Numbered from the stretch's first letter, positions 19,744-20,937 are shown. The stretch: DNA of 64,000 nt from Perna viridis (GCA_037379345.1 CM074524.1:7909635-7973634); one strand, 5' to 3'. Notes: generated from the letters alone by a model not told the origin. Numbers and translations are program-made.

Positions 19744-20937
19744 ATGGGAAATATTTCATCTACATTAAAAAGTCTAGAAGACGAATCGAAGGAAGTCAAA
19801 ACTCTCGTACTTTTATCAAAAGAGGGAAAATGGAACGACGTCTTCAGGATACTCAAATCTAGCCCTTATTTGTTGAACGCAATACCAGAGGACAGGCGAT
19901 GGGGTGTTATTCACCAAGCCGTTTGGTGGAATAACGAGGAAATAATGAAGAAACTCCTGGACCACTCGACCTGCGACTCCAGACTTTTGACAAAAGAAAC
20001 AACATCTGAAGTTGGCGATACAAGCGCCTGCACTGCGTATGACGTAGCTGTGAAGTATGGATATACCGACATAGCTAAACTACTGGAAAAACATTCGAAT
20101 AAATTGACAACGGAAGAAGAAATAGAAGAGCTTCCAACATTCCACTACCAGAATAGCGACATTCAGCTCAAAGGCTTGGGTCTTTTACGTGTCACCTTGG
20201 CCTCATACAGACACACGTTTTGCCCATTTACCATATCAGGTAACAAGAGTCTGAGCACCATTTTGGGTGAGATATTTGATTTTGTCGACAGTGGTGACAA
20301 TTGGGCAGCCGTCAAGGACAAGGTTTGTGACTCCCTGTATACTGTTTGCAAGCCAGCTGTTAAGGTCCTTAGAGGAGTAAAAACAAAGCAAAAATTCTAC
20401 GAAAAAATTGTTAACGTTTACACGAACGAAGACACACAACTTTACATGTACTTAAACACAGCCTTAAGAAGGCAAGAGGAAAGAAATTATCGCCCAACTG
20501 CAAAAGATCTCGGTCTCGGACCCTACGTACTAATGTTCCATTTGCTCTTGATGTACTGGAGCCCTCTATCGCCAGAAGAAGGTACAACGTACCGAACAAT
20601 GCTGGTAAATGTGTCAGACAGTAGGAGATACCAGAAGGGCACGCAGTTTGTATGGCTCTCCTTTGTTTCTTCATCAGTAGATAAGGCGAAAGCAGAGCCT
20701 TTCCCTACCTGTGTGGCCTCGGGGCAACACAAGTTATTCTTTATTATCAACAATTCTGCTGCTAGCAGTATACAGCCACGGAATATCGAGGCCTATGCCC
20801 AGTATGTAGAAAAGGAACGCGTTTATCCCGCGGGAACAGAATTTCTTGTTACAGATCGATTGGAAAACGACGAAGAGACAACCATTCACCTTAAACTCAT
20901 CGATCGACAATTAGCGTTCGCACAGAAACCAAAATAG
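19744..20937 (+). CDS. Ankyrin-repeat + NAD:arginine-type (R-S-E, ARTC-like) ADP-ribosyltransferase, 397 aa, predicted intracellular
   Basis: Only long ORF in the window. ANK-like repeats (LSKEGKWNDVFRIL; VIHQAVWWNNEEIMKKLL; TAYDVAVKYGYTDIAKLLE). ART helical motif YTNE...LY.YLN.ALR. Catalytic YR284, FVS309SS and E356-K-E358, followed by YPAGTEFLV. Splice acceptor (T)n-cag at 19735-19736 just before the ATG. Confidence 0.9.
   Translation: MGNISSTLKSLEDESKEVKTLVLLSKEGKWNDVFRILKSSPYLLNAIPEDRRWGVIHQAVWWNNEEIMKKLLDHSTCDSRLLTKETTSEVGDTSACTAYDVAVKYGYTDIAKLLEKHSNKLTTEEEIEELPTFHYQNSDIQLKGLGLLRVTLASYRHTFCPFTISGNKSLSTILGEIFDFVDSGDNWAAVKDKVCDSLYTVCKPAVKVLRGVKTKQKFYEKIVNVYTNEDTQLYMYLNTALRRQEERNYRPTAKDLGLGPYVLMFHLLLMYWSPLSPEEGTTYRTMLVNVSDSRRYQKGTQFVWLSFVSSSVDKAKAEPFPTCVASGQHKLFFIINNSAASSIQPRNIEAYAQYVEKERVYPAGTEFLVTDRLENDEETTIHLKLIDRQLAFAQKPK

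Follow-up and report, generated by a model that had tools for sequence, protein, structure and literature searches.

A bivalve ankyrin-linked ARTC protein as a candidate cytosolic arginine mono-ADP-ribosyltransferase

Introduction

In animals, arginine ADP-ribosylation has so far been characterised only for cell-surface enzymes. ARTC genes carry their catalytic domain in one exon. The mammalian ARTCs are described in reviews as lying outside the cytosol, in extracellular or luminal positions (PMC9027952, PMC10789625), and the mark of arginine-specific ADP-ribosyltransferases (ARTs) is the R-S-ExE motif set (PMC3102197). The hydrolase ARH1 is cytoplasmic and specific for Arg-ADP-ribose (PMC7050489). 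According to PMC3102197, no intracellular arginine-specific ART had been characterised as of 2010, and cytoplasmic ARH1 was without a writer in its own compartment; PMC9027952 considers the existence of at least one intracellular enzyme that modifies arginine probable. Bacteria have pairs of an ART and a hydrolase, Imm-ARG (PMC3482391).

Here we describe a gene for a protein in which ankyrin repeats precede an ART (Ank-ART), located in a 64,000-nucleotide stretch of the Perna viridis genome (GCA_037379345.1, CM074524.1:7909635-7973634; hereafter the window, to which coordinates refer unless another location is named). A sequence-only reading had proposed an intracellular, putatively myristoylated, arginine-type enzyme, plausibly an immune or cell-death effector, encoded by a perhaps mobile and possibly dispensable gene with an intronless coding sequence.

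Results

Domain structure and comparison with described ADP-ribosyltransferases

The Ank-ART coding sequence (19744..20937, plus strand, as are all features of this gene) specifies a protein of 397 amino acids. The roughly three ankyrin repeats noted earlier are present at residues ~12-120 (19777..20103) and carry the signature K26, W30, N45, P48, R51, W53, H57, Q58, W61, D78, and K84; in the structure model (pLDDT 88.4, pTM 0.89), residues 7-123 match ankyrin domains with Z scores of 11-13.5. Residues 131-213 (20134..20382) correspond to the ARTC helical lobe and align with the N-terminal part of rat ART2.2 (1gxy), and residues 214-388 (20383..20907) form the catalytic core according to profile and fold matches. 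The match to ART2.2 (Z 14.4, 197 aligned positions) extends over model residues 131-391, which thus comprise the whole ARTC enzyme including its helical lobe; the fold check suggested by the sequence-only reading therefore returned the ARTC fold in full. Arginine ARTs head the list of fold matches, among them HopU1 (Z 15.3, rmsd 3.1, 187 aligned) and Vis (Z 14.7). Pfam matches of the single protein fall below cut-off (Ank_2, E 2e-4; ART, E 1.3e-3), and the domain assignment therefore rests on the fold and on a family profile built from 54 relatives, which matches Vis (E 6.5e-9), HopU1 (E 3.3e-6), and the Tre1-type structure 6dre (E 5.3e-6).

The R-S-E triad is complete, as had been claimed, and is composed of R284 (20593..20595; kept in 53 of the 54 members), the STS-type motif S309-S310-S311 (20668..20676; S309 kept in 50), and the arginine-type ExE motif E356-K-E358 (20809..20817; E356 kept in 50 and E358 in 51). 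The split beta-sheet ART fold with helical lobe, and the conserved R, S-x-S, and E motifs in their expected places, assign the protein to the ARTC class, and on the model it is quite likely to be catalytically active. Glycine usually follows the catalytic Arg and is kept there in only 15 of the 54 members, and 31 of them have Arg directly behind the catalytic Glu; the acceptor site may therefore differ from that of known arginine ARTs.

The protein resembles the vertebrate ecto-enzymes ARTC1, ART2.2, and ARTC5 in its helical lobe, beta core, and R-S-ExE site, and the location of the catalytic domain in one exon is likewise a feature of their genes. Unlike them, it lacks a signal peptide and GPI tail, has an N-terminal ankyrin unit, and is only ~10-14% identical. 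With the bacterial enzymes HopU1, Vis, XopAI, and ExoS it has in common the fold (Z 12-15.3), the ExE motif, and a predicted intracellular site of action; unlike these, it is host-encoded, intron-bearing, and vertically inherited, and identity is 14-22%. The nearest ART-only relatives among the matches listed are invertebrate signal-peptide/GPI ARTs (P0135 of Mytilus galloprovincialis and P. viridis genes on C7 and at C9:3.07 Mb), which are 30-38% identical over the core and carry the same motif set, but are hydrophobic at both termini and lack the ankyrin unit.

Gene structure, expression, and neighbourhood

The intact 397-residue open reading frame in a single coding exon was confirmed; across 50 shufflings of the window, no stop-free frame exceeds 196 codons. 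A pyrimidine tract and CAG come just before the ATG, which is fixed as the start codon by the splice position and by a TAA lying in frame two codons upstream. Contrary to what had been implied, the gene is not intronless. A 600-nt GT-AG intron in the 5'UTR (19137..19736, GTATGT...(T)9CAG), ending 7 nt 5' of the ATG, has been removed in transcript contigs of three studies (runs X1, X3, and X7), so that the gene is spliced even though its coding sequence occupies one exon. The splice joint in these runs defines a non-coding first exon (19107..19136) whose 5' end is not fixed, the contigs reaching 21-28 nt into it. The second exon (19737..21358) comprises a 7-nt leader, the whole coding sequence, and the 3'UTR, and is covered by contigs at 19735-21273 and 21244-21358; its 3' end is not fixed, and an AATAAA lies at 21427. 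A perfect 85-nt tandem duplication occupies 21235-21404 in the 3'UTR, and transcript contigs break there. The spliced leader contains three upstream reading frames of 2-3 codons (19108..19740; ATG at 19108, 19113, and 19132), the last of which crosses the splice and ends 3 nt 5' of the main ATG; to judge from the sequence, these could damp translation. The coding sequence is GC-richer than its 2-kb flanks (43.0% versus 30.9% and 32.8%), as had been observed, which is ordinary for a coding exon in a window of 33.6% GC; the exons of the neighbouring CMC1 gene have 36.6%.

Our case for transcription, which the earlier reading had named as a check, rests on spliced joints in contigs, found in the three studies above. 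At least 0.90 of the gene's words occur in 20 of the 24 runs listed (eight studies), a listing that selects for runs holding the gene, and transcript contigs extend over the gene in X1, X3, and X7 and thinly in X20. With CMC1 as an expression control, the coding sequence has a read depth below 0.1 in the raw reads of X21, where CMC1 joints carry 29-33 reads; in X22, where CMC1 is spliced, contigs on the Ank-ART gene are absent. Expression is therefore uneven, being restricted by tissue, condition, or genotype. Run X24, which is without a CMC1 contig, has only contigs of 35-58 nt at 19900-19959, the most conserved ankyrin stretch; these probably derive from a relative's copy.

CMC1 (8300..13495, minus strand) is head-to-head with the Ank-ART gene, 5.6 kb from its first exon. 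Its identity was established with short sequence patterns, with spliced reads, and by scanning a single exon against Pfam (Cmc1, E 7e-6); a Pfam Cmc1 search of the genome gave no match. The transposon relics seen earlier are indeed nearby and are LINE-like, flanking the Ank-ART gene. They include a zf-RVT relic (6431-6943, plus strand; Pfam E 2.5e-4, below the Pfam cut-off) and a DUF6451 relic recognised by Pfam (14555-15013); LINE-like sequence at 6431-6943 (plus) and 14555-15398 (minus) lies on both sides of CMC1. A 37-nt inverted repeat with a 16-nt loop (18677-18766), ~350 nt upstream of the first exon, is likely a small transposon relic. Positions 2275-2692 and 22450-23600 hold an array of ~63-nt units and, downstream of the Ank-ART gene, a ~575-nt duplicated block.

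Predicted location and N-terminal modification

By a crude hydropathy rule, neither end of the protein has a hydrophobic stretch (N-terminal hydropathy 0.7, C-terminal 0.5), in keeping with the earlier view that it has no signal peptide or GPI tail; thus the signals for secretion or GPI anchoring that characterise ecto-ARTs are absent. The same rule, applied to 151 rows (the best 150 of 255 matches plus the query), found a signal-like N-terminus in none of 112 ankyrin-bearing rows, and all nine rows that have one are without the ankyrin unit. Because signal peptide and GPI tail are missing, the Ank-ART protein is very likely cytosolic, which supports the description of it as an intracellular protein combining ankyrin repeats with an R-S-ExE ART.

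N-myristoylation follows a pattern of an MG-x-x-x-S start, with Gly2 and a small residue at position 6. The predicted motif MGNISS (19744..19761) fits this pattern, and an MG-x-x-x-S start is found in 17 of 54 aligned members, including both mussel paralogue clades and Saccostrea, as well as in the C9 copy described below; neither Mya and Dreissena nor the deep members have it. The proposed G2/S6 motif is therefore present and kept in part of the family, but it is limited to certain lineages and is not a family feature. Judged from this distribution, tethering to membranes by myristoylation in mussels and oysters is modestly probable.

The Ank-ART family and its ecto-type relatives

A first search yielded 38 relatives among 3327 candidates, including proteins of Mytilus (47-73% identical) and of Sinanodonta, Saccostrea, Mya, and Dreissena (40-49%), with further relatives in Tegillarca and in a deep Mytilus edulis lineage. 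A full scan gave 255 proteins at E 0.001, and the ankyrin unit and ART core occur together in 68 rows among the best 150 of these plus the query. Atlas clusters add look-alikes from Rotifera, which are known from those clusters alone. P0013, P0016, P0021, P0029, P0043, and P0088 are Ank-ART proteins with extra ankyrin units and a C-terminal Cys/His-rich segment and coiled coil; P0013 and P0016 have two ART modules each, and those traced to their source contigs lie on contigs of 0.9-1.4 Mb.

Among the matches listed, the closest ART-only relatives are the ecto-type (signal-peptide/GPI) enzymes. A quick tree of the ART domain (120 rows, those with fewer than 135 profile positions left out) joins them and Ank-ART in one family and places 10 of 11 ecto-type ARTs in one group (SH-aLRT 90); as this tree has long branches and no root, it gives no order of appearance for the ecto and cytosolic types. 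On sequence comparison, then, the catalytic domain is one that Ank-ART shares with the invertebrate signal-peptide/GPI ARTs. The P. viridis genome has ecto-type ARTs with hydrophobic ends at C7:41.537-41.541 Mb (L012, L013) and C9:3.074 Mb (L016); the C7 gene has a broken tandem copy, and the L016 protein ends in a transmembrane-like stretch and short tail.

Besides the intact Ank-ART gene, the genome contains three damaged or incomplete copies at C9:20.28-20.30 Mb. A frameshift near codon 16, which may be an assembly error, disrupts one of them, several breaks disrupt another, and the third is a 5' fragment. Within this region (C9:20.277-20.298 Mb; L002-L004, L006), L002 and L004 are each preceded by a duplicated block that is almost identical in the two, and protein P0184 is nearly identical to the C-terminal 277 residues of L002. 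Comparison of the window gene with eight copies shows saturation of synonymous sites in every case (pN 0.37-0.44), and synonymous change among paralogues far exceeds non-synonymous change. No coding differences are listed in the four transcript sets that cover the coding sequence. Together with the excess of synonymous change, this is not the picture of a fast-diversifying immune receptor. The combined evidence supports an old, bivalve-wide family evolving by duplication and decay.

Linkage to ARH1

A scan of metagenome data gave 17 loci from 127 pattern matches, 13 of which are Ank-ART loci, 11 of these from one data set. Their flanks are AT-rich and mostly non-coding, several copies are broken, and six whole proteins that were compared are 38-65% identical to one another. 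Eight of the copies group with Mya and Dreissena proteins in the tree (SH-aLRT 97), so the source of the data set is likely a clam.

At one locus, an intact single-exon ARH1 gene (L035:487-1578, minus strand; Pfam E 2.9e-63) with SDDT and GDSDST motifs is head-to-head with an Ank-ART gene at a distance of ~1 kb, and a second, broken Ank-ART copy lies 2.6 kb behind the first. The encoded hydrolase matches human ARH1 (3hfw) at E 1.8e-124, compared with 6e-13 for ARH3. At another locus, a decayed piece of ARH1 (L039:3374-3564, plus strand; E 5.9e-7) lies ~0.5 kb behind a broken Ank-ART copy. ARH1 is thus found at 2 of 13 Ank-ART loci that together span 51,292 bases, which is far above chance, given that ARH1 was found once in the 723-Mb P. 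viridis genome; the two linked loci belong to a single data set and could represent a single cluster. The P. viridis gene lies apart on C3 (L044/L045) and contains an intron, located after about residue 70; linkage is therefore not a general feature. The clam-like arrangement recalls bacterial ART-ARH pairs of the Tre1-Tri1 type, in which the ART likewise adjoins an ADP-ribosylhydrolase gene, but here the neighbour is an animal ARH1 and the linkage is not kept in P. viridis.

Among the independent lines of evidence that favour arginine as the acceptor and the cytosol as the site, this genomic linkage to ARH1 is the strongest. The arginine specificity previously read from the ExE motif is hence backed by a second line of evidence, from a relative, and the acceptor is probably arginine, with the mark being reversed by ARH1.

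The ankyrin unit occurs with PARP-system domains

The three-repeat ankyrin unit also occurs separately from the ART, often as 2-4 spaced copies. Among the matches listed, PARP-system domains are present in 20 of 26 multi-unit proteins that have no ARTC domain and were found through the ankyrin part alone: zf-PARP in 10, WGR in 8 (two proteins having both), and a PARP catalytic domain in 4 (two below cut-off). Of the 26, only P0037 is named, from the dinoflagellate Noctiluca. Since they probably represent a few related protist families, the 20 are not independent events. P0037, P0071, P0086, P0090, P0109, P0113, and others have zf-PARP and/or WGR with 2-4 spaced units and no catalytic domain that could be found, and from its domains this protist family looks like a DNA-break or PAR scaffold. 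Of four ankyrin-only metagenome loci, two fuse the unit to DVNP in dinoflagellate-type proteins (L041:53-817 and L042:237-941; Pfam DVNP E 1e-16 to 1e-17) and one fuses it to UBA. In P0124, two units (E 3e-10) are combined in reverse order with a barely related ARTC domain (E 0.02). P0084, a generic many-repeat ankyrin protein in the hit list, does not match the unit's profile; low-complexity Pfam matches on P0023, P0035, and P0190 were disregarded.

The 87 ART-fused and 50 PARP-system units have in common A25-K26, W30, N45, P48, R51, an aromatic residue at 53, H57-Q58-A59, an aromatic residue at 61, D78, and K/R84. Because K26, R51, aromatic 53, Q58, aromatic 61, and K/R84 are shared with units that have no ART, they are not there for packing onto it. 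These basic, aromatic, and Gln residues of the binding face would suit an adenine nucleotide with its pyrophosphate, and the spaced tandem copies beside DNA-break and chromatin domains would suit a PAR reader, for which PBZ, WWE, and macrodomain proteins are models. No ligand stands out from the comparison of structures: RNase L scores level with DARPins and generic ankyrins (Z 12-13.5), and tankyrase reaches 10.8. In profile matches, RNase L gives E 0.009 and the tankyrase clusters give values from 3.5e-5 to 4e-3; neither is matched better than other ankyrins are, and an Atlas search with the unit returned generic ankyrin clusters. These sequence patterns suggest ADP-ribose as a possible ligand of the unit, in place of a peptide or a different nucleotide, although the odds are somewhat below even.

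Discussion

We favour, by a modest degree of confidence and on the basis of sequence and model, a cytosolic arginine mono-ART that takes part in a write/erase cycle with ARH1 and is aimed by an ankyrin unit belonging to ADP-ribose signalling. The protein would sit in the cytosol, in mussels on a membrane, and the ankyrin unit would dock on an ADP-ribosylated site or partner, most likely by binding ADP-ribose already on the target, and thereby aim the enzyme or switch it on. The enzyme would then transfer one ADP-ribose from NAD+ onto nearby arginines of host proteins, and cytosolic ARH1 would likely remove the mark and reset the arginines. The turnover of copies, the linked eraser, and the patchy expression are compatible with a stress or defence enzyme kept under tight control; such a role is close to an even proposition, falling slightly short of it. 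The immune or cell-death role and the dispensability suggested by the sequence-only reading would agree with gene turnover and uneven expression, but are conjectural. A bolder version would have an invertebrate cytosolic cycle of arginine ADP-ribosylation in which the ankyrin unit is a new ADP-ribose/PAR reader, common with protist DNA-damage and chromatin proteins, and the enzyme amplifies a stress or infection signal started by PARPs; we regard this version as speculative and on present evidence doubtful.

Other readings keep the enzyme and change the function of one of its parts. The ankyrin unit could be a peptide-docking module like a tankyrase cluster, recruiting one protein substrate. 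Tankyrase, too, has ankyrin repeats ahead of an ADP-ribosyltransferase, its clusters are among the better natural profile matches (5jhq, E 3.5e-5; TNKS2, E ~3e-3; weak, and at the start of the cluster), and AK.G, VNC, R, and LH.AA..N recur in member P0142. Tankyrase substrates are recruited through these clusters (PMC10789625). Against this, Ank-ART belongs to the ARTC rather than the ARTD class, is predicted to be a mono- and not a poly-transferase, and has none of the tankyrase ARTD (H-Y-E) domain, SAM domain, or five ankyrin clusters. A tankyrase cluster is made up of five repeats and the single Ank-ART unit of three, the structural match (Z 10.8) is below that of generic ankyrins, and the surface is kept between animals and very different protist proteins, which fits a small universal ligand better; peptide docking is accordingly a rather unlikely function. 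An effector resembling RNase L, whose unit senses an oligoadenylate or cyclic-nucleotide alarm and triggers ADP-ribosylation or NAD+ depletion, is improbable. RNase L likewise has a sensor-like ankyrin unit ahead of its enzyme, the unit matches its repeats 1-3 (1wdy, E 0.0086; 4o1o, Z 12.6, rmsd 1.8, 93 aligned), and its 2-5A contacts presumably fall at the positions of W53, Q58, W61, and K84. At least three OAS-like genes (six OAS1_C exon matches) are present at C8:31.17-31.28 Mb. The match, however, is at the level of generic ankyrins, the residue correspondence is presumptive (a literature search for the contact residues found no paper), and the four positions are the usual binding face of any ankyrin; Ank-ART has three repeats and neither the kinase-like nor the RNase domain, and the other partners of its unit are PARP-system domains, not OAS or cGLR. 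About as improbable is an enzyme that is mainly an NADase, or that modifies nucleic acids as pierisin and shellfish CARP-1 do. In favour of this, the acceptor-side residues are unusual, and NAD+ hydrolysis may be the main activity of mammalian ARTC5 (PMC10789625). Against it, the motif is ExE and not QxE (PMC3102197), ARH1 adjoins relatives, and the best fold matches modify arginine.

A further alternative concerns the origin of the gene, for which the sequence-only reading had suggested a retrocopy or a mobile or horizontally acquired, toxin-like gene. A single coding exon, LINE relics nearby, and bacterial effectors at the top of the structure lists would agree with a recent event of this kind, but the proposal did not hold up. 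The gene has a spliced 5'UTR intron, and an acceptor-like site also precedes the start codon of the C9 paralogue; synonymous sites are saturated between paralogues, and the tree is bivalve-wide, with relatives in Mytilus, Saccostrea, Tegillarca, Sinanodonta, Mya, and Dreissena. Pattern scans, which detect close relatives only (the ART-core alignment is too variable for scanning), found no relative among 32 and 87 pattern matches in prokaryote genomes or 12 in viral contigs, and none in plasmids or phages. Structure matches are 9-22% identical, the viral ones 9-20%. A recent retrocopy or transfer is thus extremely improbable; a very old transfer at the base of the Ank-ART family is possible.

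UniRef already auto-names several members arginine ARTs. A literature search of titles and the starts of abstracts found no paper on the Ank-ART family, which a 2015 review of ART natural history could mention, and passages of PMC9334734 and PMC7955679 contain no mention of it. With an intact site and a linked ARH1 in one lineage, the family is a concrete candidate for an animal writer in the favoured cycle; if this is true, vertebrates would be without a known writer for such a cytosolic arginine cycle. What would be likely to surprise a specialist is the proposed reader function of the ankyrin unit, which may add a new class of ADP-ribose reader.
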